64,000 nucleotides of DNA, taken from NCBI GenBank assembly GCA_963664435.2, contig CAXXKM010000003.1, forward strand, positions 1,120,001-1,184,000, read 5' to 3'. Each line of letters begins with the position of its first letter. The stretch's first letter is position 1. Shown here piece by piece: positions 11,348-27,794 of this stretch. The stretch is from Longimicrobiales bacterium. Lineage in GTDB: Bacteria; Gemmatimonadota; Gemmatimonadetes; Longimicrobiales; Gaopeijiaceae. The translations under genes and the position numbers were made by a program. Below the pieces are notes generated by a model. It ran no database searches. It was given only the letters and a program-made list of their open reading frames with translations, and was not told the DNA's origin.

Positions 11348-11523
11348 GTTTCGGTCGACCAGGGTCCTGAGCGTTGAGGAGTGGGAGTGAGCATCCGGCG
11401 CGCCGGCGGGTTATGGATCAGGCCACCTGGGCACGGGTCGGCCGGAATCGCGGGCCCCGCGGCCCGGCCACGCCCGGGCGCGCCGGAATGCTCTCCGTAC
11501 TGCGTACAGCTGCGTTCGAGGAT

Positions 11524-11820
11524 CTATCCCCCTGCGATGCGGTCCCGCAACGGCTTTCCGGGCTTGAAGTACGCGTACTTCTTCGCCGCGATGGTGATCT
11601 TTTCGCCGGTCGCCGGGTTGGTCCCGATACGCGCCGCACGCGACTTGACGCCGAAGCTGCCGAAGCCGGGGACCGTCACCTTGCCCCCCGCGTCGAGTTC
11701 GCCGGCGATAATGCCCGATCCGGCACTTGTGTCGAAGATGCAGTTGAGGACATCGGCTGCCTTCGCCTGGGAGAGGTTGGCCTGCTGCGCGAGAGCGGCC
11801 GCCATTTCCTTCTTGTTCAT
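11524..11820 (-). CDS. hup: HU family DNA-binding protein
   Basis: MNKKEM...GFGSFGVKSRAARIGTNPATGEKITIAAK...FKPGKPLRD. Confidence 0.95.
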   Translation of the reverse strand: MNKKEMAAALAQQANLSQAKAADVLNCIFDTSAGSGIIAGELDAGGKVTVPGFGSFGVKSRAARIGTNPATGEKITIAAKKYAYFKPGKPLRDRIAGG

Positions 11821-11933
11821 TACATCTCCTGCGTTGTGGGTGCACGAGACTCCACCGGACTGCCCCATCCGACGGAACGACAAGACAGGATACACGGAAT
11901 GGAGCGATTGCGGAACCTCGTGCCCCCCCGGCC

Positions 11934-11976
11934 ATGGGCGCTGACGGATTCGAACCGCCGACCTCCTGCTTGTAAG
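11934..11976 (-). repeat. Displaced 3' half of tRNA-Val(TAC), the att site bounding element A
   Basis: Matches the 3' half of the tRNA at 32266-32340 from the anticodon loop CTTACAA onward, except for 4 T-stem substitutions that preserve pairing. Confidence 0.92.
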
Positions 11977-12552
11977 AGGAACTCTGGGGCCGGGTGATTC
12001 GCGGCAATAAATCGTCTAAGTTCAATCAGGACTGCACGATCTGCGCTTCTTGCCGAGACACCACATCTGCTTCCAGCGTACCGAAAAAGCCGGAAAATGG
12101 CAAACAAATGGCGAGCATCCGAACGGCGGCTACTTCGATTCTTGACCACCGGGTGTCGCGTCCCGGAACGCCGGTGCCGAAACGCGCATACGCTGTCGAC
12201 CTTTCTGGGCCGCAGGCGGAGGTCCGACGGGCCTAGGGTTAACGCAGGGATGAGGCGACGCGCTCGCCCGGCGTTCGCCACAAGAGAGCGGTCAAGGGTC
12301 CCGAATTCAGACCCCTGGCGTACAGCGCGGTCACCAGGCCGGAGTGGAAGGCCCTCGCCCGGCTCATCCTCGAGCCCGCGGATGAGAGCACCCCACTCGC
12401 CGGGGTGGCGTGATCCTTGCGCGCAGCATCCGTCCCAGTCGCGTTTGACGCTGGTGCGGTTCTTGCTCTTGGTGGCGGTAGCACCAGAAGGACTCTCTGA
12501 GGCCCTCCACTTTGGAGGCGAAGAGATCTCGGCAGACCGACGGGGAGGAAGC

Positions 12553-12765
12553 GTGAACACAAAGACCAGGGGAGCGCGCTACATGTTCATTGCGAAGGTG
12601 CTGGACCGAACCGGCTACCACGGTCTCCGCAAGAAAGAGAAGTCGAAGATCAAGGCACTGCTCCAACGGGGCACCGGGTTCTCCCGCGCCCAACTTACGC
12701 GGTTGATCGCACAGCATCGCACGACCGGGAGGATCGTAGACCGGCGACGGTGGTGGGAGGTCTAG
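12553..12765 (+). pseudogene. N-terminal fragment of a DDE integrase/transposase-like gene
   Basis: FIAKVLDRTGYHGLRKKEKSKIKALLQRGTGFSRAQLTRLIAQHRTTGRI resembles the HTH N-terminus of IS transposases; truncated. Confidence 0.55.
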
Positions 12766-12987
12766 GATGCGGCGCGCCCATGGCGTCCCCGACCGATTCC
12801 CAGGGACGGTGATCACACATGGAAGGCAATCAGCGCCATGGCGGCGGAACGGATCATCCGGGTGAGCATCGAATCGAGGCGCGAGCGCCTTGGGTTGACC
12901 CGCCTGGATGCCATGGTTTCCCTTGACGGACGGGGACCGTGTAGGGGCGGTCAATGCGCATGCGGGACGAAAGGAGCGAGATAAACA

Positions 12988-13335
12988 ATGAAGGACAGTT
13001 TCGCGATTCAGGAGCTGGGTGTCGCGCTGGTCAAGCTTGAGCGTCGCGTCGTCACCGGGTTCGATCAACTGAACGGACGGATCTCCGCATTGGAATCGAA
13101 GCTCGGCTCGCGGATCGACGACGTGGAGGCGCACGCGCACAAAGGGAACGTCGAGCTCGGGAGCAGGATTGAAATGGTGTCAGCCAAGTTCAAGCAGATT
13201 CGATACTCGCTCGACGGGCTGGAGGACCGCCTCGGCAAGAGGGTCGACGGATTGGACACCGAGGTCCACAAACAGCTCGGCGCTCTACAAGCCGCGGTCG
13301 ACGCGATCGGCGCGCACTTCGTCAGTTCGCAGTAG
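12988..13335 (+). CDS. Coiled-coil hypothetical protein
   Basis: AAGGAG RBS and heptad-like LESKLGSRIDDVE repeats. Confidence 0.7.
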   Translation: MKDSFAIQELGVALVKLERRVVTGFDQLNGRISALESKLGSRIDDVEAHAHKGNVELGSRIEMVSAKFKQIRYSLDGLEDRLGKRVDGLDTEVHKQLGALQAAVDAIGAHFVSSQ

Positions 13336-14669
13336 TCGAGGTTCTCCTATCCTGATGATCGACCATTTGGCCAGGATGCGCGATCGGGACGAATGACGAG
13401 TTCCGCGACGTGAGCTATTGCCAGGTCCAGGCCGAGGCCGTGCAGTGCGCCGACTGCGGAGGTCCAACCACGGAGGTCTTCGGCAATTCCGGACGCCGGC
13501 GGCGCTGAGCGCGCTGTGTGCCCGCGTTGCCGCGAGGATGTGCCGCGCAAGAGATGGCAGCGGGACGCGCTTCTGCCGGAATGACGCGACGGGCCGCTGC
13601 CGCGAGTGCGGGGCGATCACTTGCACCCTTCATCGGCGCGGATGCGAGTTCGAGCACCATCGAGCGCGGGCGCGCGCCGAGCCCTCGAGTTGACAGGGGA
13701 AGAGGGGAGACTCGGCGTAGCTCTGGAAGGCGGCTCGATTGACCGCGTCGACACAATCGCATCCCTACTTCGTCCGTTCCGAATTGCGCACCATGTCTTT
13801 GGCAGCCCTCACGCGGGGTTCATATTGCGGCGCGATGCTGCGGGTCCACCGAAGAAGAAGTCGCAGCCGCGCGTGAGCGAACCCGCCAACGAGCGGTCGT
13901 CACCGCTCACGGTCGCGATGCCCGACGCGCACTGAATGAACCGCACGCGGATTCGAGTGACCCGCGAGCCCCGGAACGTCCTTGAAGGCATCCCGCACGG
14001 CACTACAGTAGTCCTCCAGAGCGTCGGGGACGGGGACGGGTTCCTCCCCTCCTGGAGGGGCCGGAGGCGGATCCGGCCAGCGAGGACGATGCAACCGTGC
14101 TGGCGGGATATCCGGTCTTTCGCATGGCGACTTGGAAGGTCGGCACCGATCCCCTATGGGCTTGGCGCGCCAATGTTTCCTCGGTCCTCGCCGTGCGCTG
14201 GTGACGTCACGAGCGGGATCTCCGCCTGACCTCCGCGAGGCGAACGACGAATCACGGATCGTTTTTCAACAACGCAGCGGAGGTTTCCCACGCCGTTGAC
14301 CCCATTTTTCCACGAATCGCCTTCGTGCCGGTCGCTTGACTCCCGCACTGTCGGCCATCAGGCGGGAACGCTTCGTGACTTGTCTCGCGGAGCAAACGTC
14401 TGGCGCTGGGAGAGACCAGGAAGTGGGCAGCCTTCGCGTGGGCACATACTTGAGCGGCACCCTCTCATCTGCCCCATCCCGTTCACATACTTGCTGAGCC
14501 GCTGCCCCCGCCGAGCACTGCTCGCGCATCGTCCACCCCCCGGGCCGTGCCTCCTCCCCGCCCTCTCCGCAGCCCGCCGGTCGGCCCCCGCGCCGCTTGC
14601 GCGACGGCATCGCGTCCCGGAGGTTGGACGGACGTGGCGCCTCCTCGGCCACGATAAGGAGGGCCGTTC

Positions 14670-14885
14670 ATGGCGAAACAGGCGATCGAAATCGAAGGGG
14701 CGGTCATCGAAGTCCTGCCCAACGCCACCTTTCGGGTCCGGCTGGAGAACGGCCACGAGATCCACACATATCTCTCCGGCAAGATGCGCCAGCACTACAT
14801 CCGGGTGTTGGAGGGCGACCGGGTGAGATGCGAGATGTCCCCCTACGATCTGTCGAAGGGCCGCATCACGTATCGGTACAAGTAA
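14670..14885 (+). CDS. infA: Translation initiation factor IF-1 (stand-alone copy)
   Basis: [29 protein letters not shown]...[17 protein letters not shown]...[15 protein letters not shown], with AAGGAGG RBS. Confidence 0.97.
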
Positions 14886-14919
14886 TTCGCTGTACACGCT
14901 CGCCCTGCGGTCGATGCCG

Positions 14920-15165
14920 ACATCACAGAACCGGGCATGCTCACCGGCCGCGTGCCGCCAGCCTCGCCGGACTCGCCCCGGTCAGCCCGGGAGTCCGGAA
15001 ACTGAAGGGGACGGAGCTTCATCCAGGGCGGCAGGCATCGGGTGCGCCGGCTGCTTTGCATTGCGCGCGATGGCCTTGGTTCGGCACAATCCCGTCCTGA
15101 AGCACGAGTACGAGGCGTTCGTGGCCCGCGGGAAGCCGCCGAAGTTGACAACCCCAACGGCCCCG
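14920..15165 (+). pseudogene. IS110-family transposase C-terminal remnant
   Basis: Frameshifted AASLAGLAPV..ESG..GRSFIQGGRHRVRR..HNPVLKHEYEAFVARGKPPKL. Confidence 0.8.
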
Positions 15166-15213
15166 GTGCATTGTGGCCGCGCTGCACGACCCAGGGGACG
15201 GGGAGACGGCAAT

Positions 15214-15570
15214 CATGAGCAGATCGAATTCGTGGATGGCCGGGACGGCGTTGGGTCTTGCCATTGTAGCGGGACCAACGGTGGCGGCAGGCGAGGAACT
15301 CCCCCCCGACATCCGAAACGACCGCAACGTCGTGCGTGCCGATCGGCTGGTCCAAAACCAGGACCACGGTGCCGCGCTGGAATCCCTGGACGTGGTCTTG
15401 GCGCGGCAGCGCGGCAGGCCAGGAGCGGCATGAAGACCCCGGCAGAACTCTGGTTCAGGCACGCACGGACAGCTCCGGACGCCGGGTACGCCGAGACCGT
15501 GGCCACGTCGGTCGTCCGCTGCTTGGAGAAGGCGGGTCGGCGCGGAGCCTCCGCCGGGAAGACGGCGTGA
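15214..15570 (+). pseudogene. Degraded secreted TPR-like N-terminal module
   Basis: Signal peptide, then LPPDIRNDRNVVRADR..AALESLDVVL, a frameshift, then PAELWFRHAR..AGYAETV..VRCLEKAGR. Confidence 0.55.
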
Positions 15571-16053
15571 AGAAGTGGCGCCCACCCAAGGGACGGAAGC
15601 CGCCGAAGCGGAGGGTGGGGCAACGTCCGTCGCGCAAGCCACGGAAACAACGGCGGCGCCGCCGGGACAAGGGCCGGTGGGAGAAGGAAACAGACGACCG
15701 GATCGAGTGATCAGGTTCGGCACGTCGTCGGAACCACGCGTAGCGCGCCCAAACCTCTCTGCCGTATCGATCCGCCGGGGCCAACCGGAGCCGGTCGTAT
15801 GCTCCTGCCCGCGTCCAGCGACGTTGCCACTCCGGGGCGCGTGCGAGATGGGACCGTCGGAGGGCGGCGGGTCGATCACCCTGCGGGTCGCTGACTGCGT
15901 GGCTGACGGGCGCCGCACTTTGGTGTCCACGGTGGATCCGTGAACGTTCGGTAACCGCGCCACCCGGCCGGCGGGAAACTTCGAGAGCCGCGCCGCGCAG
16001 GTTGCGTGAGCCGGGGCTGGTGGGTGCCTCCTCGTCGTGGTGGTGGTCGCGCG

Positions 16054-16076
16054 GGACGGGCCGGTTGGGCCCGTCC
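16054..16076 (-). terminator. GC-rich hairpin downstream of the dead tnpB and its putative guide
   Basis: 9-bp stem GGACGGGCC/GGCCCGTCC; no U-tract. Confidence 0.5.
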
Positions 16077-16229
16077 GGCGGGTATTGAGTCGGTTCCGGC
16101 CTTCGGCGAACTCAAACTCTCCGGCCTTCGTTCGACGATTCGCGCTTCACGGACCGGACCGGAGTTACCGGTCTCCGCGCGCGTTCGGGGCGCTTGCGCG
16201 CCTCCGGTTCCGGCGGGCCTCGCCGTACC
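16077..16229 (-). ncRNA. Putative omegaRNA (scaffold plus 16-nt guide) overlapping the tnpB 3' end
   Basis: Shares GGTACGGCGAGGC-CGCCGGAACCGG...CCGAACGC-CGCGGAGACCGG...TGAA-CG-GAATCG with the two copies at 26550-26952. This is the usual position of TnpB omegaRNAs. Confidence 0.7.
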
Positions 16230-17194
16230 TGCAGTTGGCGCCCGTGCCAACGGGCCTTGTACTCGAGCTGGCGCAGCATCTCGCTGCTGACGCCCTCGAC
16301 GATGATCGTGCCGGCGGCGAGGACGACGATGGTGGTGAGCTTGTGGTGGCGGTCGCGCTCGCGGTTCCTGATGTTCCTGGCGACATTGCGGAACCGTTCG
16401 AGAACGCGGGCCCGCCGCTTCGAGTCTTCGGTGCAGCGGCTCAAGCGGCGCTGGAGCCGCCTCATCCGCTGCCTGTCGGCGTCGGAGCGCTCGTCCGGTC
16501 CCGGGACTTCGATGGGCCTGCCGTCGAGTTCGACGGCGATGCCCGGGCCGTCCTGGCGCACCACGGCGACCTCCGCCGTGGGCGCGGCGGCATCGACCGG
16601 GCCGCACTCGAACACGCACGAGAACATCCAGCGCTCGCCGGCGTCGCGCCAGACCCGGCCGTACACCATGCCGAGCGTCGTGCGGCTCTTCGGGCCCTCG
16701 AGCCGGCCAGCGGGCAGGCTCCCGCCCAGCCAGCGCATCCAGCCGAACTTCGGCAAGCGGACGCGGTTGCCGTCGAAGCGGGTGCCGTGGCTGGCCACGT
16801 AGATCCCGGGGGCGCGTCCCTCGGGCTTGAACCTCGGCAGCCCCTGGCGCGCGCGTGGCTTGGTGTGCCAGTTGCGGAACGCTCCGTGCATGTCGGTCGC
16901 GATCTGGTAGATGGCGGTGGACGGGAACGGGTCGCGGTTCGGCCTGCGGCGCCACCAGTCCTGGGCGGCCGCGCGGAACTCCTTGCCGGTCATGTGCCGG
17001 CCCGTCTGGGAATACTGCAGGTTCGAGGCGCCGAGCAGGGCGTTCGACAGCTCGCGGAGCCCCTCCCGGCACAGGGCGAGCAGGCGCGCCTGCGGCCGGT
17101 TCGGGTACAGGCGGCACTGCCAGCCGACGTAGCGCGCTTCCCCGTTCGGCCGGGCCGCGCGCGCGCCGGGCGCGGTCGGCCGCTTGGTCGCCAT
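16112..17194 (-). CDS. Nuclease-dead TnpB derivative (TldR-like RNA-guided DNA-binding protein)
   Basis: TnpB hallmarks RLYPNRPQ, GLPRFK, VRLPKFGWMR, RRLQRRLSR, HHKLTT and RQLEYKA are present. RuvC-I GxDxG is replaced by VVRQDG, and the Zn finger and RuvC-III are absent. Confidence 0.85.
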   Translation of the reverse strand: MATKRPTAPGARAARPNGEARYVGWQCRLYPNRPQARLLALCREGLRELSNALLGASNLQYSQTGRHMTGKEFRAAAQDWWRRRPNRDPFPSTAIYQIATDMHGAFRNWHTKPRARQGLPRFKPEGRAPGIYVASHGTRFDGNRVRLPKFGWMRWLGGSLPAGRLEGPKSRTTLGMVYGRVWRDAGERWMFSCVFECGPVDAAAPTAEVAVVRQDGPGIAVELDGRPIEVPGPDERSDADRQRMRRLQRRLSRCTEDSKRRARVLERFRNVARNIRNRERDRHHKLTTIVVLAAGTIIVEGVSSEMLRQLEYKARWHGRQLQVRRGPPEPEARKRPERARRPVTPVRSVKRESSNEGRRV

Positions 17195-17210
17195 GACGCT
17201 CCTCCCTCCC

Positions 17211-20200
17211 CTACCGGAGCTTGATCCGTCCGCGGACGCCCACCGAGTGCTGGGCCGCACCCAGCGCGCTCTCGCGCCGCGTGCCTTCCAGCCGCAGCCC
17301 GACCCCCGCGCCCAGATCGTAGCGCACGCCGCTCGAGAAGGCGCGCGTCCCGCTCTTGCCGAGGTAGAAGCCGCTGTAGGGCGTCCCCTGGAAGCCGGCG
17401 ATGCCGTAGGCCACTTCGCCGTCCACGTTGGGGCCCATGCCCAGGTCCTGGCCGCCCACCGCGTCGGACACCCCGCGCTCCCAGAGCTGGTTGACCCCGC
17501 TCCTGTGGTCGCCGTACGCGGGCGCCACCCGGACCTGCAGCCCCTGGCCCGGGGCCGCCGGGTCGAACATGAGCATGCCGCCGAGGCCCCATTCCTCGTA
17601 GCCTTGGCGCGCCGAGATGACGAACCGGCCGCGGCCCTCCGCGGTCAATCCCAGCCCGGAGTTCGTGTAGCGGAGCCCGCCGCCGACCTCCGCGCTGGTG
17701 CCGTTGATGCCGTCGCCGTTGTCGTAGCGCATCCCGCCCTCGAGCACGAACGCCATCTCCTGCCCCGTGTCGGTGCGGAAGCCTTGCGTCAACTCAAGGG
17801 CAAGCTTGGCGCGCTGCATGTCGAGCGTCACCGTGCCGATCTGCTCGGTGCCCTCGACCTCGAACCGGCCGCTCCAGCCCTCGGCCTTGAGGCTCACGCC
17901 ACCGATGCCGCTCGTGAACAGCTGGTAGCTCGCGCCTCCCGCCCCCGTCATCATGCTGGCGGGGCTGGTGCGGAGCCCTTCCCGCTCGTCGTCGACCTCG
18001 ATGTCGCCCCGGCCGATCCCGGCCGAACCCCACACCGAGGCGCCGCGCGCGCCGGGGAACCAGGCCACGTAAGGATGCGCGCTGGTCATGGTGGTGCCGT
18101 AGGTGCCGGCCACCGGTCGGGCGCCGGTCTTGTCGGTGAAGTCGAAGGAGCCCGAGTTGTACGAGCCCGCGACACCCGCCAGGATGTCCGGCCCCACGCG
18201 CATGTCCACGCCGACGTGGGCGCTCACCATGTTGCCCTTCCAGTCGAGCTCGCTCGCGCCGGGTTCGCCCATGTAGTGGTACTCGCCCGCACCCCAGCTC
18301 GCCATCTGCATGCCGGTCGCGGACTGCTGCGGCGCGTCCGGGGTGCCGAACGGCATCAGGAATGAGGTGCCGCCGAATAGGGCGGCCAAGCCGGCGCCGT
18401 CATTCTGGCCGAGGCCGAGGCCGCCCGGACCCGGCGCGGACAGGCTCGCGGCCATCGACGACAGTCCGTTCGTCTCCACGCTCTGCTCCATGCCCATCCC
18501 GTTGGCCACCGCGTTGACGCGGTTTGCGATCGCCGAGACGGTGCTCGAGGTCATCGCCGCGGCCACCTGCGGCAGGACGCGGGTGTTGAGCCGGCCCGCC
18601 CGCTGCACGGGGTCGTCGGTCGCCGCCGTTGCGCTCGCAGACGCCGCGCCGGTGCCCGCCCGGTTGATCGCCGACACCCGGTAGTGGCGCACGCTGCCCG
18701 GCTGCAGGGCGGTATGCGAAAAGGTGGCAACCGTGGACTCGGTGTTGGTGACCAGGTCCGCCCAGGCGGCGCCCGTCTCCGACACCTCGATGCGGTACCC
18801 GGTGATGGGCGCACCGCCATTGTAGTCGGGCGCGAGCCAGAACAGGTCGATCTGGGTGGGCGAGACATCGGTGGCGACCAGCCCGGTGGGCGCGTCGGGC
18901 ACCGTCGCGTCCGTGGTGGAGCCCGCGACCCGCGACGCGTTGCCCACGCCGATCCGGTTGATCGCCGAGACGCGGTAATGGCGCGTCGAGGCCGGCGCCA
19001 GCCCGCTGTGCGTGTAGACGGTGGCCGTGCTGCGCGTGGCGGCCACCAAGTCCTCCCAGCTCCCGCCCCCGTCGGCCGTGACCTCGATGCGGTAGCCGGT
19101 GATGCGGGCGCCCCCGTCGTCCGCGGGTGCCTGCCAGGAGAGGACGATCTGCGAGGTGCCGGCCGCATCGGCGTTGAGACGTCGCGGCACGCTCGGAACA
19201 GTCGCCTCGGTGGTCGCCCGCGCCACGTTCGAGAACGGCCCCACCCCCGCGAGGTTGATGGCGGCGACCCGGTAGTGGCGGGTGGTTGCGGGCCTCAGGT
19301 TCACGTCCGAGAACGCCGTCGTCGCCGAGTTCGTGTTGCGGCGGATGATGTTCCAGGTCGCGCCCTCGTCGTCGGAGGCCTCGACGCGGTAGCCGAAGAT
19401 CGAGACGCCGCCGGTGTAGCGCGGCGCGTTCCACGACAGGTCGATGCGCGAGGTGCCGACTGCCCGGGCCGTCAGCCCAGTCGGGGCCGCGGCGAAGTCC
19501 GCGTGCGTGAGGGCCGCCCCCGTGAGCGACCACTGCCCGGCGCCCACGCGGTTGATGGCCGCGACCTGGTACTGGTACCGGGTCACTGGGTCAAGCCCGG
19601 TGTGCGTAAAGGTCGTTGTCGTCTCCTCCGTGTTGGGACGGATGATGATCCAGGAGCGATCGTTGGGCCCGAGCATCCGGATGCTGTAGCCGGTGATGCG
19701 CGCCCCTCCGTCGCTCTCCGGCCGGTCCCAGACGAGGAGGACGCTGTTCGGTCCCGTTCCGCGGGCGCGTACGTTCTGCGGCTGCCCGGGAGGCGCCGCA
19801 TCGGTGGTGCCTTGGGCCACGTTGGAGGCGCGTCCCGTACCCACGCCGTTGATCGCGGACACGCGATAGAACCAGGTGGCGGCGGGGCCGAGATTGCTGT
19901 CGGTGTAGATGGTGGCCGTGCTGCCCGTGCCGGGCACATGGATGATCCAGCCGCCGCCGCCGGTGGCGGACCTCTCGATGCGGTAGCCGGTGATCGGGCT
20001 GCCGCCGTCGTCGGGCGGGGCGGACCAGGTGAGGAGGAGTTCGTCGGTTCTCCTCGCGCCCGGAACCACGCTCAGTGCTATGGGCGGGCTCGGAGGGGTG
20101 GCGTCGGTGGTCGCCTGGGCGGTGTTGGACCACGGGCCCAGACCCGCCCGGTTGATCGCTGCTACGCGGTAGTGGCGCGTGGTGGCGGGGCTGAGCTCGT

Positions 20201-21509
20201 CGTCGGTGTAGGTGGTGGCCGTGGACTCGGTGTCGGCCTCGAGCCGCGTCCAGGGGCTGCGTCCGGCCCGCGACCATTCGATGCGGTAGCCGGTGACCGG
20301 CGTCGAGCCGCTGGAGGAGGGGGCGCGCCACCTCAGTTCGATGGCGGACATCCCCCGGGCCTGCGCCGTCAACGACCGAGCCGCGTCCGGCAGGACATCC
20401 TCGGTGGTGGCGTCGGCGACGTTCGAGGGGTCACCCGCCCCGTTGAAGTTGATGGCCGACACCCTGTAGTGCCGCGTGACGCCCCCGGTGAGATCCTTGT
20501 CGTCGCGGTAGCTGGTGTCGGTGTTCCGGGTATTGCGCTCCAGAGTCGACCACGGGTCGCGGCCGTCTTCCGACCACTCGATGAGGTACCCGGTGATCTC
20601 GCGACCGCCATTCGAACTCGGCGCCTCCCACTCCAGTATGATCGCGTCGGGGCCGTCGGCCTCCGCCGTGAGCTTGCGCGGCTCTCCGGGCACCCCGGTG
20701 CGCGCCTCCCCGGTGACGTTTCGCACCGCCCTGTCGAAGCCGAACGCGCGATTGCCGGCCAGATCCCGAAGCGCGTCGGCGCCGCGGTCGTCGTAGAACA
20801 CCCGAACCGCGTCGAGCGTATCGACGGGGCTTGCCAGAAGCAGGAACACATCGCGGGTGGCCACTTCGACCCGGGACACGGTCTTGACGTCGTGTGACAC
20901 GGTGCTATTTCCGAAGGCGACTTGGAAATAGCTGGTCGATGGGACGAAATCCTCATCGAGGTCTTCGTCGAAGGCGATGACGACTTCGTCGCCGTTGACC
21001 TTCGCGTCGCTGACTACAGGGCCCCTGGTGTCCACGTTGATGTTGACCACTCTCGACGGGGTATTCCCCTCCTGCGAGCTGTTCTGCACCACGTTCCCAG
21101 GGATATGGAAGAACACCAGGCCGTCATATTGTTCCGGCATCCTCATCGTGACGACAAACCTCCTGCCTTCGTCACTGTCCAGCGGATCGGCCACTGCACA
21201 CGCCGCGGTCGGGTGCGTGCACGTGATGTTGATGTCGTCGACCGTGAAGCCGGTCACGCTCTGCGAGAAACGGATGACGACGCTGGCAGAGTTCTGTGTG
21301 GACCCGATCCAACTCCATGAAATCGAGGTCGTGGGGGGGACGGCCACGTCGCTCGCCACTGGGGATTCCACAACCGACGGGACGCCCGCACGCGAACCGC
21401 CCACATATGGCTCCTCAGCCTGTACGCCCGCAGATGGAACCAGGAGCGCGCAGACCACTGCGGCCGCCAAGAGGGAACGGACGGGTACGCCAGGCTGATT
21501 CGGAATCAT
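17211..21509 (-). CDS. Fibronectin type III repeat autotransporter-like surface protein
   Basis: Signal peptide, Ig-like and SwmB-like domains, 7 Fn3 repeats (P..P..L.A....I.L.W..P...GG..ITGYRIE), C-terminal beta-barrel. Confidence 0.88.
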   Translation of the reverse strand: MIPNQPGVPVRSLLAAAVVCALLVPSAGVQAEEPYVGGSRAGVPSVVESPVASDVAVPPTTSISWSWIGSTQNSASVVIRFSQSVTGFTVDDINITCTHPTAACAVADPLDSDEGRRFVVTMRMPEQYDGLVFFHIPGNVVQNSSQEGNTPSRVVNINVDTRGPVVSDAKVNGDEVVIAFDEDLDEDFVPSTSYFQVAFGNSTVSHDVKTVSRVEVATRDVFLLLASPVDTLDAVRVFYDDRGADALRDLAGNRAFGFDRAVRNVTGEARTGVPGEPRKLTAEADGPDAIILEWEAPSSNGGREITGYLIEWSEDGRDPWSTLERNTRNTDTSYRDDKDLTGGVTRHYRVSAINFNGAGDPSNVADATTEDVLPDAARSLTAQARGMSAIELRWRAPSSSGSTPVTGYRIEWSRAGRSPWTRLEADTESTATTYTDDELSPATTRHYRVAAINRAGLGPWSNTAQATTDATPPSPPIALSVVPGARRTDELLLTWSAPPDDGGSPITGYRIERSATGGGGWIIHVPGTGSTATIYTDSNLGPAATWFYRVSAINGVGTGRASNVAQGTTDAAPPGQPQNVRARGTGPNSVLLVWDRPESDGGARITGYSIRMLGPNDRSWIIIRPNTEETTTTFTHTGLDPVTRYQYQVAAINRVGAGQWSLTGAALTHADFAAAPTGLTARAVGTSRIDLSWNAPRYTGGVSIFGYRVEASDDEGATWNIIRRNTNSATTAFSDVNLRPATTRHYRVAAINLAGVGPFSNVARATTEATVPSVPRRLNADAAGTSQIVLSWQAPADDGGARITGYRIEVTADGGGSWEDLVAATRSTATVYTHSGLAPASTRHYRVSAINRIGVGNASRVAGSTTDATVPDAPTGLVATDVSPTQIDLFWLAPDYNGGAPITGYRIEVSETGAAWADLVTNTESTVATFSHTALQPGSVRHYRVSAINRAGTGAASASATAATDDPVQRAGRLNTRVLPQVAAAMTSSTVSAIANRVNAVANGMGMEQSVETNGLSSMAASLSAPGPGGLGLGQNDGAGLAALFGGTSFLMPFGTPDAPQQSATGMQMASWGAGEYHYMGEPGASELDWKGNMVSAHVGVDMRVGPDILAGVAGSYNSGSFDFTDKTGARPVAGTYGTTMTSAHPYVAWFPGARGASVWGSAGIGRGDIEVDDEREGLRTSPASMMTGAGGASYQLFTSGIGGVSLKAEGWSGRFEVEGTEQIGTVTLDMQRAKLALELTQGFRTDTGQEMAFVLEGGMRYDNGDGINGTSAEVGGGLRYTNSGLGLTAEGRGRFVISARQGYEEWGLGGMLMFDPAAPGQGLQVRVAPAYGDHRSGVNQLWERGVSDAVGGQDLGMGPNVDGEVAYGIAGFQGTPYSGFYLGKSGTRAFSSGVRYDLGAGVGLRLEGTRRESALGAAQHSVGVRGRIKLR

Positions 21510-21574
21510 CGTGCCTTCTCCGCGTCAGGTGAAATGCGCGGTGGAATAGTCATTTGCTTACCGGTCGTCTGGTG

Positions 21575-21673
21575 AGCGTCACCCCCCGTTCGGGAGTCCC
21601 GAACGGGGGGTGACGCTGTCCCGCGGCCTGCGACCATCAGCCTGGCTGACGGTTAGTCAGCCAGGCTGATGGT
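21575..21673. terminator. Two tandem perfect hairpins (21-bp and 18-bp arms) between the two surface-protein genes
   Basis: AGCGTCACCCCCCGTTCGGGA-G-TCCCGAACGGGGGGTGACGCT and ACCATCAGCCTGGCTGAC-GGTTA-GTCAGCCAGGCTGATGGT. Confidence 0.75.
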
Positions 21674-21683
21674 GTTGAAGGGG

Positions 21684-24600
21684 TTATGGGACATCTACTG
21701 GCGTACCCTCGGTGAAGTCGCCAGCACTGCCCTGTCTCGAGTCGACGCGAACTCTGAACGGCTTGTTGAGTTCGACGTCCGTGATCGCAATCGCCGTTCC
21801 ACCCACCGTGTTCCAGCTCGCGGTGAAGTCATGAATCCACTCCAAGCTCCAACTCCTGGTGGTGCTTGCGATGGTGGCGGGCTCTCCACCTGAGGCGACG
21901 AGCCACAAAGTCGAACCAGTGTTTTCGGAGGCGACCTCAACCATGATCCGGAACTCGGAACTGGTGTTGCTATCGGCGTCCCAAGTGACGGTGAGGGTGT
22001 CGGCAACGGTGGTATCGGCAGTCGCCGCACGACTCGCAGTGACACCGCTGGTCGACGGATCGACCGCGCCGACCGTGACCGGATCGGATTCGATCGTGAA
22101 GGTAAGGTCCGAATCGGTGGGGTGTGCGACCGACGTCACCACTCGAACCATGAAGGTGGTATCGCCCGGCGACGTGAACGTGTAGCTGCCCGGGACATTG
22201 ACCGTAGTGCCGAGGCTGTCGCGCGTCACCAAGGTTGCGCTCGCATCCGTGAAGGTGCCGGTGTAGTTGTGCTGCACCTCGTGCGTGGCGGGGCTGGTGA
22301 ACCCTTCGGGCACGTCCGTGGCGCTGTCGACGAACTTCACGCTGATGTTGCCATCGTAGCGTTCGGATTCGTCGATGTCCTCGGTGGACTCGTCGTCCTC
22401 CGTGCGGGCACGCGATGCGCTGAGGTTCCTAGCCCCAGGCGACAGCGCCTCGATCGCGCCGAAGTTCAAGCTCTGACCCGGTGCGACGCTCACCCTCTGG
22501 TTGTCGTTCGGATACTTGAAGCTGTGGTTCGCCAACGACGCTTCGATGTCATAGGCGCCGAACGGTACGCTGAGCACGAAGGTGCCTCTCGCGTTGCTGG
22601 TGCTCAAGACGTCGTCCCCGGCTGCGCCTGCGACCACGTTCGTGGCCGTGACCGTAACGCCACCCATGGCGTTGCCGTCCGGACCTCTCACCCGGCCCGA
22701 AATCGTCGCATGCTGGAAGCCGGTGAAGTTGATGCCCGAGACCGCCGATCCGGCGTGGGCCGGAACAGACAGCGTCGCAGGCGCGAAGCTCATGCCGTCC
22801 TTCGACACGGTCACATCGGCGCTCTCGCCGAGGTCCTTGGCCGCGAATTCTGCCGTGTAGGTGCCGTCGGCGCCCGTCACGAGCTTGCCCCTGTTCGCAC
22901 CGGTCTTGGCCGCGTTGGTCGGGGCATTGCCGTCAACCTTGATCTCCGCACCGGCGATCGGCGCGCCGCTGCCGGACGCGGTGACCGTACCGCTGATCGA
23001 GGCGATCGTGCCTACGCCCGAAAGATCGACGTCCTGCCGGATCCGGCTGTTTGCGGCAAAGGCCTGGATGTTCCGCGTCTCCCCGCTTCCTCCATGGGCG
23101 GTCTCGACGAAGACGCTGTTCGTGTGCGTCACGGTGCCGATTTTGCGGCTCGCCACGTTCGGCACGTACTCCGCGATGTAGCGGCCGTGTACGTCGGACA
23201 TCGCTACAACACCGTTCACGTTCACGTTCACGCTGTCCACGGGGAAATCCTCCGCGTCCTTCACGTAGCCGTAGACGGTGGTCGTCGCCGGCGTGACGTC
23301 GAGTGAGACGTCACCCGCGAGCGGGTTGAAGGCGTTGCCGACCATGGCCGTGGCGCCCTTCGGACCCAGCCTCGCCCGCCAGCCGTCCGTCACGCTGGCC
23401 TTGTAGACGCCGGCCGCGATGTTGTTGAAGGCGAACTGGTGGGTCTCGTCGAGCACTTCATTGCCCTTGGCGGTCTCACCCGGCCCCCGGACCGGCTTCT
23501 CCGTAGTGGTGGCGGACTCCTCGTCACCCGCGAGATTCTTGCCCTCGACCGGGCTCAGGCTGACGGAAATGCCGGCTACGAACGTGGGGGGGGCACCCTC
23601 GGGATCATATACGTCGACTCCGTCGGTCTTGCCGAACGAGAATCTGTCATCGTTGGCAGTCTCGGTGCTCTTGACGACCACGTTCTTCCAGATCAGCCCG
23701 CTCACCGAGTGCGTGCTGACGTAGGCGAACGACGAGCAAGCGTCGTGGTCCTGCGGGTTCTCGTCCTGCAGCGGGCAGAGCGAAACCGTGTGGCTGTAGC
23801 CGCCCTGCGCACCGAAGTGGCCGCCGGTGATGCCGTTGGCATCCGTGCCGGTGTAGGCGGCGAGCTCATCGGCATGCCCGCCCTCATCGAGGATCATGAT
23901 GCTGAGGTCGGTGTTGTCGGCCTTCGACGCGTTGGCGATCACGTTCATGTCGGCCGGCACGTTGCTGAAGACCCACGCACCGCCGTCACCATTGTCTTTC
24001 GGTTCGCTGATGCTGTCCGCAGCCGTGAACGCGCGCGAGCGTCCGGAGTCGTCGATGTAGCGGAGGTCGACATCGACCTTGCGGTCGGCGCCCTTACCGT
24101 CCCTCTCGTCACCGCCGAGGATGTTGCCGGTGTAGCCTTCGACTTGATCAAGCTCGTGGTGCACGTAGACCTTGAGGGTCTGGGTCGTGAACGCCACCTC
24201 GATCATGTCGGCGTTCTGGGTGCCCGCCAGCATGAGGCCGGTGTGGGTGTACTCGACCGAGCCACCGTCGTAGCTCTCGCCGCCGTCCAGCGTGTTGGCC
24301 TGGTCGTCGTCGACGGCGATGGTGAAGGTCGCCGGCAGGTCGTCGGCTCCCACGGTGGTCGTGAACGCGGCGACGCCGGCTGTGTCCAGCTTCTCCGGCG
24401 CGCCTGCGACCGAGTCTTCGCCTGCCATGACGCTGATGGCCCAGTTGGCGAGCGTGTCGCCGCCACCGTACTCGGTGGTGACGGTGGCACCGCTGATGGC
24501 CACGTCGACGTTCAGGTTGACGATGTCGTTCTCGTTGGCGCCCGCGGCCATGTTGTACTGCGGGTTCCACGACACGACCGTCATGCCGTCGGCCACATGG

Positions 24601-26330
24601 TAGCCGTCGGCGGAGACGCTCGCGTGGACCATGTTGCCGCTGGTGCCGGCGCGCGCGACCCGGATCATCACCGAGCCTTCTTCGCCGGTCATGCCGCTGC
24701 CGATCTTGGTCTCACCGGCCGCGTCCGAGAAGAAATCGACGATCGCGCCGGGAAGCGCGGCACCCATCTCTTCACCGCTCCTCAGCGAGGCTGTGAAGTT
24801 GACCCTGGTGTGCGTGATGTCGAACGGAACCGACTGCGTCACAGCCTCGCCGACACCGAGGGCGACCGCGTAGCCCTCGCCGGGTCCGCCGTAAGCCAAG
24901 TCGTTGGCCGCGAGAGCCGCGGCGACCGTGGCGTTGATGGTCACGACCAACTGGTACGGGCCGGCGCGGAGGCCTGTGAAGGAGAACGCGCCGGTCGAGT
25001 CGGTGAGGCTCACCCGCTGCTCGTTGACGCCCGGGCCCACCAGCACCACCGGAAGACCGGCGTGCGCCAGCGGATGCTCGCCCTCGTCGAACATGTCGTT
25101 CTTGGTCGCCTCGTCAACGTACGCCATGCCGGACACGCTCGCGGTGCGCGCGTGCGCGCCCTCGAAGTTAATGATCGCCGACTCGTCGTCGCCGACCGTC
25201 ACGTCCGTGCTCATCGACTCGAAGACGTAGGCGTCGCTGTCGACCGCGATCGAGACCGTGTAGTCGCCGGCCGCCAAGCCCGCGAAGGAGTACTGGCCGC
25301 CCGCGTCGGTCATCGCGGTGCGGTCGTCCGCGCCCGCCAGCGTGACCGTGATCTCGCCGAGGCCCATGCCCTCGACGCTCACCCGGCCGCTGATGCCGGA
25401 GGTGCGGAGCAGGACGCCGGTGAACGACACGGTGCTGGTCTCATCGAGATCCACGTTCACGTCTTGGGACGTGGACGCGAACTCGTAGTCGCGCGCGTCG
25501 AAGTCAGAGATCGAGACCGTGTAGGCGCCGGGACGCAATTCCTCGAACCGGTACATGCCGTCGGCGTCGGTCATGATGGTGTAGCTCTCGTCGGCGGGAC
25601 CGCCGCTCAGGGTAACCGTCACCCCAGCAAGGCCCTCGCCTTCGATGATCACCTGGCCCTCGACCGCGGAGGTGCGGATGAAGTGGCCCGTGAAGTCGGC
25701 CTGGCCGACATCGCCGACCTCGACCGCTACCTCGACCATCACCGTCTCGAAGGAGACGTCCTCCGGATAGTCGCTGATCGTGACCGTGTAGGTGCCGGCC
25801 CGGAGCCCGGTGAACGCGAAGCCGCCGGTCTCGTCGGTCTCCATGGTCTCGCCCATGGCGTGCTCACCGCCCAGCGTGACCGTAACGCCTGCCAGCGTTT
25901 CGGGCTGGCCGTCGCCGCCGCTCATCATGGCGTCGGCCGCAACCACGTTGCCGACCACTGCGGACGAGCGGATATACTCGCCGGCGAAGTTGAGTTGGAC
26001 GTTCTGACCATCGGTCGCGATGGTCGCGGACTGCGTCACTTCGGCGAACGTCGCGTCCTCGGGGAAGCCGCTGATGGTGACCGTGTAGGTTCCCTCTTCC
26101 ACGCCCGAGAAGGCGAAGTTGCCGCCCGACCCGGTGGTCGTGGTCGCACCGGACGACAGGGTGGCGGTGACGCCGCTGGCGGCCGTGCCCTCGATCGTCA
26201 CCGCCCCGGAGATCGTCCCCACGGCAGCAGGCTCCGGCGGGGGCTCCACTATCGGTGGAGTGCCCTCGTCGCAGGCGGTAATGGTAACGGCCAGCAGCAG
26301 CGCCAGCCCGTGCTTGGTAAAACGGTTCAT
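21684..26330 (-). CDS. Large acidic surface lipoprotein with repeated carboxypeptidase-regulatory-like/SdrD-B-like domains
   Basis: Lipobox ITAC, repeats of GVTVTLSG...TD..G.F.F.GL.AG.YTVTIS, GGAGGG RBS. Confidence 0.88.
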   Translation of the reverse strand: MNRFTKHGLALLLAVTITACDEGTPPIVEPPPEPAAVGTISGAVTIEGTAASGVTATLSSGATTTTGSGGNFAFSGVEEGTYTVTISGFPEDATFAEVTQSATIATDGQNVQLNFAGEYIRSSAVVGNVVAADAMMSGGDGQPETLAGVTVTLGGEHAMGETMETDETGGFAFTGLRAGTYTVTISDYPEDVSFETVMVEVAVEVGDVGQADFTGHFIRTSAVEGQVIIEGEGLAGVTVTLSGGPADESYTIMTDADGMYRFEELRPGAYTVSISDFDARDYEFASTSQDVNVDLDETSTVSFTGVLLRTSGISGRVSVEGMGLGEITVTLAGADDRTAMTDAGGQYSFAGLAAGDYTVSIAVDSDAYVFESMSTDVTVGDDESAIINFEGAHARTASVSGMAYVDEATKNDMFDEGEHPLAHAGLPVVLVGPGVNEQRVSLTDSTGAFSFTGLRAGPYQLVVTINATVAAALAANDLAYGGPGEGYAVALGVGEAVTQSVPFDITHTRVNFTASLRSGEEMGAALPGAIVDFFSDAAGETKIGSGMTGEEGSVMIRVARAGTSGNMVHASVSADGYHVADGMTVVSWNPQYNMAAGANENDIVNLNVDVAISGATVTTEYGGGDTLANWAISVMAGEDSVAGAPEKLDTAGVAAFTTTVGADDLPATFTIAVDDDQANTLDGGESYDGGSVEYTHTGLMLAGTQNADMIEVAFTTQTLKVYVHHELDQVEGYTGNILGGDERDGKGADRKVDVDLRYIDDSGRSRAFTAADSISEPKDNGDGGAWVFSNVPADMNVIANASKADNTDLSIMILDEGGHADELAAYTGTDANGITGGHFGAQGGYSHTVSLCPLQDENPQDHDACSSFAYVSTHSVSGLIWKNVVVKSTETANDDRFSFGKTDGVDVYDPEGAPPTFVAGISVSLSPVEGKNLAGDEESATTTEKPVRGPGETAKGNEVLDETHQFAFNNIAAGVYKASVTDGWRARLGPKGATAMVGNAFNPLAGDVSLDVTPATTTVYGYVKDAEDFPVDSVNVNVNGVVAMSDVHGRYIAEYVPNVASRKIGTVTHTNSVFVETAHGGSGETRNIQAFAANSRIRQDVDLSGVGTIASISGTVTASGSGAPIAGAEIKVDGNAPTNAAKTGANRGKLVTGADGTYTAEFAAKDLGESADVTVSKDGMSFAPATLSVPAHAGSAVSGINFTGFQHATISGRVRGPDGNAMGGVTVTATNVVAGAAGDDVLSTSNARGTFVLSVPFGAYDIEASLANHSFKYPNDNQRVSVAPGQSLNFGAIEALSPGARNLSASRARTEDDESTEDIDESERYDGNISVKFVDSATDVPEGFTSPATHEVQHNYTGTFTDASATLVTRDSLGTTVNVPGSYTFTSPGDTTFMVRVVTSVAHPTDSDLTFTIESDPVTVGAVDPSTSGVTASRAATADTTVADTLTVTWDADSNTSSEFRIMVEVASENTGSTLWLVASGGEPATIASTTRSWSLEWIHDFTASWNTVGGTAIAITDVELNKPFRVRVDSRQGSAGDFTEGTPVDVP

Positions 26331-26396: not shown

Positions 26397-26412
26397 AGCA
26401 ACAACGGTGCCA
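26397..26412 (-). promoter_or_regulatory. Sigma-54 -24/-12 promoter of the surface lipoprotein gene
   Basis: TGGCACCGTTGTTGCT has the exact GG-N10-GC spacing, about 70 bp upstream of the ATG. Confidence 0.8.
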
Positions 26413-26533: not shown

Positions 26534-26738
26534 CGTAGCGGTTAAAGCGATTCCGGCAGTCGCTGGGTCGGTCCCGGGGGGTGCCCGGCTCTGTATCGCG
26601 ATTCACGGTTCAGCGACCGCCACGGTAGCCGAAGCCCCATGGTAACCCGGTCTCCGCGTGCGTTCGGGACGCCAAGGTCCCCGGTTCCGGCGTGCCTCGC
26701 CGTACCGTAACAGGGTTGCGCGCCGCGTTTGACGCCGC
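26534..26738 (-). ncRNA. Stand-alone omegaRNA-like unit 1 (189-nt scaffold plus putative guide CGCTTTAACCGCTACG)
   Basis: Homologous to the tnpB 3' end; one frame reads LLRYGEARRNR, a relic TnpB C-terminus. The 16 nt after the scaffold are followed by a GC hairpin. Confidence 0.72.
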
Positions 26739-26748
26739 CAAGCCGCAC

Positions 26749-26952
26749 TATAGCGGCACACCAAATTCCGGCAGTCGCTGGGGCGGTCCCGCGGGCCGCC
26801 CGACTCTGCATCGCGATTCACGGTTCAGCGACCGCCACGGCAGCCGAGGCCCCACGGTAACCCGGTCTCCGCGTGCGTTCGGGACGCCAAGGTCCCCGGT
26901 TCCGGCGTGCCTCGCCGTACCGTAACAGGTTGTGTGCCGCGTTTGACGCCGC
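26749..26952 (-). ncRNA. Stand-alone omegaRNA-like unit 2 (188-nt scaffold plus putative guide TTGGTGTGCCGCTATA)
   Basis: Near-identical direct repeat of unit 1 at a 215-bp period; reads NAAHNLLRYGEARRNR, a RuvC-III relic. Confidence 0.72.
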
Positions 26953-27794
26953 TCCCCATGGCGTCGCCCCTGCGGTCACCCCAGCCCTCTCTCGATCCTC
27001 CAGTTTCGCGATCCGGCGCTCGTTCGGGCCGAGGCCGCTGACAGGGCCTTCCGCAGGCCCGCGCGGGCGCGCCCCTTCGGCAGCCGCTCGCGGTATCGGT
27101 CGAACTCCCTCTGTCTCGTCCTCGGACAGCATGAAGAAGTCGGTCTCGTTCATTTCGGTTACTCAAGGACCCCAAGGGCCCCCGCTCCAGACCTACAATT
27201 GTGCGGAAAACGCGCAAGCGATGCTAGCTCCGTTGCAGTTCTCACCGCAACTTCGGGTCCTTCGGAAGAGGGGGCAGCGGAGAGTGCTCTTGGTCCGGCG
27301 ACGCAGAAGCCCTGGTGCCCAAGCCACCCGCCAACGATACAGCGGGCAGTACAAAGAACGCGGCAGGAGCCGGGGCTTGCTGGTTCTGGCTTCCGCTCAG
27401 CCATCGACGACCCTCCGGTAGAGGCCGCAGACGAATGGCGAATTCGAGGCCGGCCGCCTTCGCCGACTCCTGGAGGTCGGCGAACTTCTCGGCGTCGACG
27501 CGCTTCTCGCTGTACTCCTCGCCGGGAGCAGCCGAGGTATCGCAGTCCTTCCAGAATCCCTTGTTGAAGTCGCTTTGCCGCCCCTGCACCGGTAACCGTG
27601 CTCGCAAACGAGGGGTGGGGGAGTCTCCGACGGTCCAGTAAGCCCTCGCCGGGGCTGCCCGGACCTTGAACCGGTGGCGTCCGTGCGCAACGCCTCCGCC
27701 GACCTGCATCTCCGGTCCTCCCAAGCCCCCTACCGGAAGTCCCGGGCGTCCCGCCGAGGGCATTCAGACGCGCTGCTGGCGGCAGTGTCCTTTG

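Follow-up and report, generated by a model that had tools for sequence, protein, structure and literature searches.

TldRs are RNA-guided repressors of the TnpB/OrfB_IS605 superfamily. As described, they are truncated at the C-terminus, pair a guide-RNA scaffold of 97-100 nt with a guide of 9-16 nt, and act as repressors of genes that resemble those beside them (10.1101/2023.11.30.569447). Proteins of this kind, a recent discovery, are already known from the fliC_P- and oppF-associated clades (10.1101/2023.11.30.569447; 10.64898/2026.09.22.753285), and the roles of most TldR clades are unclear according to the later report (10.64898/2026.09.22.753285). Here, we describe a TldR-like system in a 64,000-nt stretch of a Longimicrobiales genome (contig CAXXKM010000003.1, positions 1,120,001 to 1,184,000; hereafter the window). 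It consists of a truncated tnpB gene at 16112-17194, a putative guide RNA at the 3' end of this gene and an adjoining operon, c1-c2, for surface proteins. We propose, with a probability of roughly 60%, that the truncated TnpB and its relatives are RNA-guided repressors of the TldR type, belong to a clade of their own and exert cross-regulation among paralogous operons for surface proteins.

The open reading frame (ORF) and its putative ribosome-binding region are as follows (window positions here and below).

16112..17194, minus strand: truncated, nuclease-dead TnpB homologue of 360 aa (P0001), by homology, catalytic residues, codon GC, dN/dS (ratio of nonsynonymous to synonymous substitution rates) and AlphaFold2 model
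17199..17207, minus strand: Shine-Dalgarno-like GGAGG run, 5 nt 5' of the ATG, by direct reading of the sequence

P0001 is a member of the TnpB/OrfB_IS605 superfamily in both sequence and fold. It exceeds the cut-off of Pfam OrfB_IS605 (PF01385; 31.1 bits, cut-off 30.5), matches NCBIfam guided_TnpB at E 4.8e-21 with 75.5 bits, under the 100-bit cut-off, and aligns over residues 25-321 with ISDra2 TnpB (8bf8/8h1j; HMMER, E 1e-10); the Pfam scan of P0001 did not find a Zn-ribbon domain. A first-pass annotation of this DNA had described the gene as a TnpB inactivated by clean losses, and the alignments bear this description out in each part. In the HMMER alignment, the RuvC-I Asp of 8bf8 (d of 'gvdvg') falls on Arg213 in the VVRQDG segment of P0001, and the RuvC-II Glu falls on Glu300 of IIVEG, the sole catalytic residue kept. 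We take the aligned ISDra2 residues to be the catalytic D191 and E278. Compared with the full-length relatives P0035, P0037 and P0042, P0001 has a 19-residue gap between the RuvC-II Glu and LRQLEYKA and lacks the stretch from just after WHGR to just before RYGEARRNR, and the Zn-ribbon and RuvC-III are therefore gone. An alternative-frame ORF (16165-16386, minus strand) reads '...CRYGEARRNRR', the C-terminus of the full-length relatives, and the tail of P0001 is an out-of-frame reading of this ancestral C-terminus and of the guide-RNA scaffold. Neither the RuvC D-E-D triad nor the Zn-ribbon of an active TnpB is intact in P0001.

The AlphaFold2 model of P0001, built from a 22-sequence alignment, has a mean predicted local distance difference test score (pLDDT) of 78.3 and a TnpB fold. 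The confident core comprises residues ~20-325, and residues 1-17 and 327-360 score below 50. The tail (residues 327-360) is predicted to be disordered, with a pLDDT below 40, as expected if it is a by-product of constraint at the RNA level. In a Foldseek search of the PDB, the model is most similar to ISDra2 TnpB (8h1j_A; E 3.6e-21, template modelling (TM) score 0.60), whose ternary and binary complexes score E 3.6e-21 to 5.6e-15 and TM 0.58-0.62. ISFba1 TnpB ranks next and is followed by nuclease-dead Cas12f, including the dCas12f-guide RNA complex 9n9c_A (E 2.6e-14).

The truncated architecture is shared by a family. A word-indexed protein search gave 37 proteins, the query included. The Zn-ribbon Pfam domain is present only in P0035 and P0037 (41-43% identity to the query) and is missing from 34 of the 36 other proteins, which are 202-411 aa long and range down to 52% identity. 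Both deletions are common to all 20 truncated sequences aligned, in which Arg213 and Glu300 are at least 90% conserved; the truncated family thereby shows the family-wide RuvC inactivation that marks TldRs. An exhaustive search of 1.84 billion representatives returned 11 matches at E<=1e-30 and 34 at E<=1e-10, and 13 of its proteins were aligned as a graded series. Eight of these, at 24-37% identity, keep D/E/D as GxDxG, Glu and DRDxNAA (P0044, P0049, P0050, P0052, P0053, P0061, P0062 and P0068). P0042 has lost the first RuvC Asp, P0035 and L032 the first and third, and P0047 and L037 more than these; the RuvC-I change in the nearest full-length relatives, P0035 and P0042, is Asp to Ala. A clear evolutionary series, from active through dead full-length to truncated forms, can be read from this alignment. 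A quick maximum-likelihood tree groups the 31 truncated rows in a single clade, supported at 99% by the Shimodaira-Hasegawa-like approximate likelihood ratio test. This clade divides into clade A (10 rows, the window included) and clade B (21 rows), and the full-length dead forms lie outside. The outcome that would have spoken for mere decay, a unique deletion among full-length active homologues, is thus not what the search and the tree returned.

The gene is intact at most of the loci compared. The locus set comprised 36 loci, namely 33 fetched loci, the window and two paralogues from the window's genome (G000). An intact truncated gene is present in about 33 of the 36: 31 pass a one-frame motif filter, and C1a and L037 are intact, though missed by its regular expressions. 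The gene is frameshifted in L033, lacks the first 72 residues in L028 and has a stop preceding the conserved N-terminal motif in L034. All 33 fetched loci come from metagenome-assembled genomes (MAGs), most labelled Gemmatimonadota or Longimicrobiales and several from sponge-associated bins. Six records (L006, L019, L021, L022, L024 and L035) are labelled Vicinamibacteria or Gammaproteobacteria and carry Gemmatimonadota-type loci with identical gene order, which suggests binning or labelling errors in these records.

Substitution patterns and codon composition point to a gene in use. The dN/dS of the window gene (Nei-Gojobori) against its nearest relatives is 0.33 (L005), 0.34 (L006), 0.36 (L007) and 0.26 (L008), at dS 0.20-0.32, and spans 0.26-0.47 against all relatives; the family median is 0.365, with a range of 0.145-0.713 (431 of 465 pairs with 0.05<dS<1.5). 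By these ratios, the truncated gene is under purifying selection. Because codon bias is strong, dS is probably underestimated, and the true dN/dS is therefore likely lower. The GC contents at codon positions 1, 2 and 3 are 0.69, 0.56 and 0.92, and neighbouring genes have 0.86-0.90 at position 3; judged by this composition, the codon usage is host-like. Could the gene be a decaying IS200/IS605 pseudogene that is still open by chance? The lost catalytic parts, the NCBIfam score under the cut-off and the disordered tail would suit such a view, to which we give next to no credence, given an architecture that stays unbroken in about 33 loci with identities as low as 51%, the dN/dS of 0.26-0.47 against all relatives, a position-3 GC of 0.92 and the conserved gene order. 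The preference for domestication over decay in the first-pass annotation is accordingly upheld by the shared truncation, the purifying selection, the host-like codons, a gene order conserved without a transposase and the conserved RNA block described below, which is also represented in RNA libraries. The family does nevertheless decay in some genomes. In the complete Longimicrobiales chromosome of L033, all that is left of the clade-A copy, at 5279-5628 after c2, is a fragment of 154 residues with a frameshift, and the clade-B-like copy at 8001-9046 is frameshifted as well.

The truncated gene is stably tied to a surface-protein operon, which occupies the following positions in the window.

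17211..21509, minus strand: c2, 1432 aa, seven fibronectin type III stretches (fn3, E 5.7e-84), immediately upstream of the truncated tnpB gene
21684..26330, minus strand: c1, a 1548-aa lipoprotein-like protein with CarboxypepD_reg/SdrD_B repeats and the start MNRFTK, without a candidate-guide match
26398..26412, minus strand: sigma-54-type -24/-12 element TGGCAC-N5-TTGC, upstream of c1

The stop codon of c2 (17211-17213) lies only 16 nt before the ATG of the truncated gene, which can thus be co-transcribed with c1-c2. TGGCAC-N5-TTGC, situated ~95-110 nt before the ATG, is the only block common to the upstream regions of all five promoter-bearing c1 genes of G000, and rpoN is present in this genome. 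About 85 nt upstream of the element, an inverted repeat, TCTGACG-N7-CGTCAGA (26483-26503, minus strand), which also occurs in L032, is a candidate site for an enhancer-binding protein.

The same association recurs in other genomes. When ORFs filtered by position-3 GC were clustered from the 36 loci, c1 (~1550-2000 aa) and/or c2 (~1430-1500 aa) was found within 8 kb of the truncated gene in 27 of them, a stable tie to non-transposon genes of the kind expected of a TldR; eight of the other nine loci have less than 2 kb of upstream sequence before the contig ends. In clade A, c1, c2 and the TnpB-like gene are arranged in this order on a single strand. In clade B, c2-c1 is divergent from c8 and the TnpB-like gene, which are followed by a LuxR-type gene and a hybrid histidine kinase/response regulator, and at least eight species-level MAGs share this order. 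An AraC-like identity for c8 was dropped, as it has no Pfam match. In L032, the full-length dead form precedes c1 and c2 and has the same orientation as these genes.

The 3' end of the truncated gene doubles as a putative guide-RNA scaffold.

16095..16234, minus strand: omegaRNA-like guide-RNA scaffold overlapping the 3' end of the ORF, by codon-independent conservation, identity between paralogues, hairpins and RNA contigs
16054..16076, minus strand: GC-rich hairpin (stem of 9 bp) that directly follows the candidate guide; hairpins of unrelated sequence occupy this place in related loci

The last ~190 nt of the gene are ~85-100% identical between the window copy and its clade-B paralogues, whose proteins are ~53% identical. 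In a DNA alignment of 29 sequences, conservation at codon position 3 is below that at positions 1 and 2 between 17134 and ~16235, whereas all three are equally conserved from 16234 downward (0.90/0.98/0.96 in the bin 16234-16205); identity drops to 0.29 beyond 16085, the sharp end of a conserved block of ~150 nt. The stems of the scaffold hairpins are retained in related loci while their sequences vary: the second hairpin occurs in at least 14 sequence variants that all fold, one of them an insertion variant with a 9-bp stem. RNAalifold applied to 28 scaffolds predicted 32 pairs, nearly all invariant and only two with double changes, and missed the terminal stem because the two clades are misaligned there. 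The hairpin at 16054-16076 is possibly a terminator without a U-tract.

RNA libraries contain sequence from precisely this region. In eight RNA runs from two studies, 7-9% of the sampled words of window 15900-17400 are present. Contigs from four of the eight runs were mapped to this 1501-nt interval, in which uncovered parts are uninformative about the mRNA level. Contigs of 154 nt (16081-16234) and 152 nt (16081-16232) match at 100% identity, as does a 161-nt contig (16106-16266) found twice, and no other part of the interval is covered. The 5' boundary of the RNA contigs coincides with the switch point of the conservation pattern at 16234, and the 3' boundary lies 12 nt beyond '...GGCCGGAAC'.

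A candidate guide directly follows the scaffold and matches the start of a c1 paralogue.

16081..16094, minus strand: candidate guide ACCGACUCAAUACC, by its match to a c1 start, co-variation and the ends of RNA contigs at 16081

The first 10 nt of the candidate guide (12 nt with the preceding GA) are identical to the sequence around the start codon of a c1 paralogue that lies elsewhere in G000, at C1:913501 (C1-C3 denote contigs of this genome). The clade-A loci all end in '...GGCCGRA' and a 10-nt string (ACCGACTCAA in the window), followed by unalignable sequence, and the terminal 10 nt are identical in all six clade-A1 loci. The 12-mer GAACCGACTCAA has three occurrences in the 4.5 Mb of G000, at two scaffold ends and the c1 start at C1:913501, with 0.2 expected. 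Longer guides were sought with the 30 nt after the scaffold: three distinct copies gave no match beyond chance against the genome (blastn-short), and against their own loci, with other loci as controls, nothing exceeded chance except in L036, whose 18-nt match is accounted for by a tandem second copy. Since no guide match of 16-30 nt was found, a short guide was adopted, and the candidate guide looks short and fixed (~10-14 nt). The boundary between the target-adjacent motif (TAM) and the guide cannot be placed from sequence, and the matches themselves are 9-13 nt long. The window terminus also has a 13-nt match at C3:1188112-1188124 and two inverted 11-nt matches at C2:120885/120930; these sites have neither a clear gene nor a TGA flank and were taken as chance.

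The predicted targets are c1 paralogues other than the linked one. Among 21 c1 starts with a sigma-54 element, 16 read ATGAAY-NGACTCAA (MNRLKL), and the five without the motif (MNRFTK, MSRFTK and MNRFLK) are exactly those linked to clade A or to the full-length form, from which it follows that the c1 linked in cis would escape. Candidate guides and targets also vary together across genomes.

G121: RNA terminus ...AGAGACTCAAG (L009); c1 start ATGAACAGACTCAAG (L053); shared run of 9 nt
G122: RNA terminus ...AATAGACTCAAG (L010); c1 starts ATGAATAGACTCAAG (L063) and ATGAACAGACTCAAG (L065); shared run of 12 nt (L063)
G123: RNA terminus ...GAGCAGACTCAAA (L011); c1 start ATGAGCAGACTCAAA (L057); shared run of 13 nt
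G000: RNA terminus ...GAACCGACTCAA (window); c1 start ATGAACCGACTCAA (C1a); shared run of 12 nt

G128 (L034) resembles G000 in this pairing. The changes at the c1 starts are synonymous or conservative (CGA/AGA for Arg, AAA/AAG for Lys, and AAC/AAT/AGC), and the RNA terminus mirrors them. The clade-A guide corresponds to the sense strand, with the TAM-proximal end towards the promoter, an orientation that worked in published 5' untranslated region (5'UTR) assays (10.1101/2023.11.30.569447). Separately, four c1 paralogues (the identical copies C2:13002 and C2:54970 of G000, and those of L017 and L022) have TGA instead of CGA at codon 3. This change falls at the first base of the candidate clade-A target and, on the strand expected to be displaced in an R-loop, replaces C by T; the four paralogues could be silent cassettes, escape variants or a coincidence.

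The terminal match might alternatively be the fossil of an insertion site, and the gene an immobile insertion sequence (IS) remnant trapped beside c1-c2 and copied with the cassette as a functionless passenger. An IS200/IS605 insertion just after the 'ATGA' of c1 would leave exactly such a flank, and c1-c2 cassettes are multi-copy: G000 has five promoter-bearing c1 paralogues and a 5'-truncated copy of the window's c1 within a segmental duplication. Other TnpB 3'-end relics lie upstream of c1 in two species, and some copies are decaying, as in the frameshifted gene and the fragment of L033. We nevertheless regard a passenger as improbable, since a fossil would not co-vary with its former target across genomes, nor stay identical over 10 nt in six of six clade-A1 loci beside unalignable bases, and since a function is required by the purifying selection that acts on the protein and by an RNA block conserved irrespective of codon position.

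The gene is not mobile at present. The window locus does not show the TnpA, left and right ends and varied insertion sites of a mobile element: no Y1 transposase (PF01797) was found in G000, which is 96% complete, in a search that gave matches in control genomes, and there is no room for a left end in the 16 nt between c2 and the ORF. G000 has four truncated tnpB copies. One, 100% identical, sits in an inverted segmental duplication of ~16 kb that extends between the end of contig C3 and a point within c1 (window ~9957-25985 paired with C3:1778193-1794204; 99.85-100% identical; break at c1 residue 116). The identical copy did not arise by transposition; the duplication itself could be real or an assembly artefact at the contig end. 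The remaining two copies share 53-54% identity with the window protein and belong to clade B. The relics upstream of c1 are represented in the window by one feature.

26545..27090, minus strand: two tandem relics of a full-length-type TnpB C-terminus, each with a complete scaffold, directly upstream of the c1 promoter

The relics match P0037 residues 290-370 (E 3e-5) and P0035 residues 380-421 (E 5e-4) at about 26606-27090 and are 94.5% identical to each other. The arrangement recurs in another species (L032, 9360-9600), and the sequence following the relic scaffold is conserved between the two species; the candidate guides of the relic scaffolds (window ~26549 and ~26764) gave no second genome match of at least 12 nt. 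The first-pass annotation had called the neighbouring IS relics full of frameshifts. That statement holds in part only: the tandem pair is the single TnpB relic found, and of seven other flanking ORFs scanned, six have no Pfam match that reaches the curated cut-off and one, at 9782-11410, encodes a 4Fe-4S/NrfD protein.

Clade B appears to follow the same logic with a different guide and site. The clade-B terminus ACGAATCAGGG is conserved in about 20 loci. Its 12-mer AACGAATCAGGG occurs four times in G000, at two scaffold ends and, in antisense orientation, in the 5'UTRs of two unlinked c1 paralogues on contig C2. A 20-nt version of the terminus is found in four of 121 family genomes; the match in G039 is not in a c1 context, and that in G113 is of uninspected context. 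In five further clade-B genomes, the 12-mer TGAACGAATCAG gave four matches, against zero for the reversed control, and each of the four precedes the ATG of a c1 gene by 33 nt. The c1 genes with the clade-B 5'UTR site also bear the clade-A site at the start codon. None of the 14 c1 genes linked in cis to clade B has the motif, and the homologous 5'UTR position has diverged. Both kinds of site are preceded by (A/T)TGA, and the RNA gene itself has CGGA or CGAA there; this pattern would look like a TAM that avoids self-targeting.

In an alternative reading, the domesticated pair acts at the RNA level, or only its RNA component acts. Near the ribosome-binding site or start codon, c1 mRNA would be paired by the 3' terminus of the small RNA in clade B, or by an internal antisense segment in clade A, and its translation or stability thereby controlled, with the protein as a chaperone or protector. 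Complementarity between the clade-B terminus and the c1 5'UTR extends over ~23 nt (20 matches) and stops 21 nt short of the ATG; an 11-nt segment of the clade-A scaffold is antisense to c1 codons 3-7; and the RNA libraries appear to contain a discrete small RNA. We consider this alternative unlikely. In clade A, the terminal segment has the sense of the mRNA and is unable to pair with it, and the antisense segment lies within a predicted hairpin. A single DNA-targeting mechanism would cover both clades. To our knowledge, no TnpB-family protein acts at the RNA level.

The position of the sites bears on a further alternative, in which the complex is an RNA-guided activator or recruiter, like nuclease-dead Cas12f with an extracytoplasmic function (ECF) sigma factor. 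The resemblance of the predicted structure to 9n9c_A and the use of an alternative sigma factor by the c1-c2 operons would fit such a role, which is very improbable in our view: the candidate sites, in the 5'UTR and first codons, are on the downstream side of the -24/-12 element, and no sigma or enhancer-binding gene consistently adjoins the truncated tnpB genes in the 36-locus clustering and Pfam annotation. These positions suggest blocking rather than activation.

Several observations weigh against RNA-guided repression. A dN/dS of ~0.3 is relaxed for a regulator. The folding energy of the scaffold is no better than that of shuffled sequences (z -0.6 to -1.9), and Rfam returned no family at E up to 1 within window 14000-19000. 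The RNA evidence consists of assembled, strandless contigs whose ends may be assembly break points; some of the runs look like duplicate filings, and the two studies are possibly one campaign. The guide is short, so single matches are weak alone. L007 (G130) and L008 (G122) have targets with one mismatch only, and no matching c1 start was found in G124 (L013) and G125 (L005), two of the eight clade-A genomes examined; gaps in these MAGs are a possible but uncertain cause. A segment further upstream in the scaffold also pairs with the terminal 8 nt, and the sister clade has a compensating pair, CCCTG...CAGGG; the terminal 8 nt could thus be structural rather than a guide. In clade B, the similarity to the c1 5'UTR reaches ~10 nt further into the scaffold (20/23 nt), which a TAM-plus-guide model does not predict, so that a relic or RNA-RNA pairing could be meant. 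Finally, the clade-B site orients the TAM-distal end towards the promoter, an orientation that worked less well in published 5'UTR reporter assays (10.1101/2023.11.30.569447).

How might a dead nuclease regulate surface proteins? Under RNA-guided repression, which we favour, the TnpB descendant would have lost its nuclease activity and mobility and kept its RNA-binding and DNA-recognition lobes. Encoded at the end of the sigma-54-driven c1-c2 operon, it would be made together with c1 and c2, and a guide RNA of ~150 nt would be made from the 3' end of its own transcript. The fixed guide of ~10-14 nt would correspond to the sense strand at the start codon of MNRLKL-type c1 paralogues, with a TGA-containing flank. 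The protein-RNA complex would bind these c1 sites and block RNA polymerase, and the expression of one surface-protein cassette would thus silence others. Clade B, with two copies in G000, would act likewise via the 5'UTR site of a third c1 type. We infer RNA binding, DNA binding, the TAM, repression and its direction, and the binding and transcription-block mechanism is proposed because of the analogy with published TldRs. In such a scheme, a programmable DNA binder, as first suggested, is plausible. More tentatively, and with less than even odds, several TldRs per genome, every one with a fixed short guide of its own and tied to a single cassette of giant surface-protein genes, may form a hierarchy of cross-repression, in which A silences B and C, and B silences C, so that the cell displays a single set of FN3/CarboxypepD_reg surface proteins at any time. 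If true, this would be RNA-guided, mutually exclusive expression of surface antigens in sponge symbionts, built from a dead transposon nuclease.

Three further features of the window lie apart from this system. A repeat of ~215 nt at 14928-15144 has at least eight further genome copies at 79-85% identity. An ORF of 71 aa at 14670-14885 (plus strand) resembles translation initiation factor IF-1 by eye; it lies in the gene-poor stretch 11411-16000, in which three scanned ORFs had no Pfam match at the curated cut-off. A tRNA gene at 32266-32340 (minus strand) is the sole Rfam match in the window at the gathering threshold.

The locus offers an evolutionary series, a candidate RNA recovered from environmental RNA libraries and putative targets whose sequences change along with the guide. 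If the targets are real, paralogous cell-surface proteins would be under RNA-guided control, among them fibronectin-III repeat proteins of a type believed to mediate contact between sponges and their symbionts, with several TldRs wired into one network. Furthermore, P0001, with ~325 folded residues and a short guide, would be a naturally minimised putative RNA-guided DNA binder.

Among described systems, ISDra2 TnpB (8h1j, 8bf8 and 8exa) shares with P0001 the fold (TM 0.60-0.62) and homology over residues 25-321; the putative RNA of the window likewise has a scaffold that overlaps the 3' end of the ORF and a candidate guide that follows it. Unlike ISDra2 TnpB, P0001 has no RuvC-I Asp, RuvC-III or Zn-ribbon, and its locus has no left end, a fixed genomic position and no TnpA in the genome. 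Nuclease-dead Cas12f with its ECF sigma factor (PMC13472631) is likewise a miniature dead TnpB relative, a structural match and a transcriptional control device, a use also proposed here. It has a CRISPR array and a partner sigma factor and activates transcription, whereas the window locus has neither component.

The closest counterparts are the TldRs, and at the level of sequence the window system has, or has candidates for, the traits by which these are recognised. Like a TldR, it combines a stable tie to non-transposase genes with a putative adjacent guide RNA, a scaffold of ~100-140 nt and a short guide (9-16 nt in published TldRs, with a candidate of ~10-14 nt in the window). A paralogue of the neighbouring gene is predicted to be targeted in its 5' region, and the linked copy would escape, the same logic as that of phage fliC_P versus host fliC and of the oppA paralogues. 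Unlike published TldRs, the system, known here from sequence alone, is found in the phylum Gemmatimonadota and in sponge-associated MAGs. Gemmatimonadota and Longimicrobiales are unmentioned in the main text and five supplementary files of 10.1101/2023.11.30.569447, whose accession-only tables could include them, and Gemmatimonadota are unmentioned in the abstract and outline of 10.64898/2026.09.22.753285. Its cargo is a sigma-54-driven operon for proteins with CarboxypepD_reg and FN3 repeats, its candidate sites lie in the 5'UTR or at the start codon rather than in promoter elements, and the window ORF reads out of frame through the ancestral C-terminus. Moreover, there are up to five paralogues per genome and two clades with different guides, which suggests that multiple TldR paralogues form a network. 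We therefore regard the window system as an independent TldR clade, set apart by its little-studied phylum, by cargo not seen with other TldRs, by the presence of multiple paralogues in one genome and by candidate sites that fall in the 5'UTR or on the start codon.

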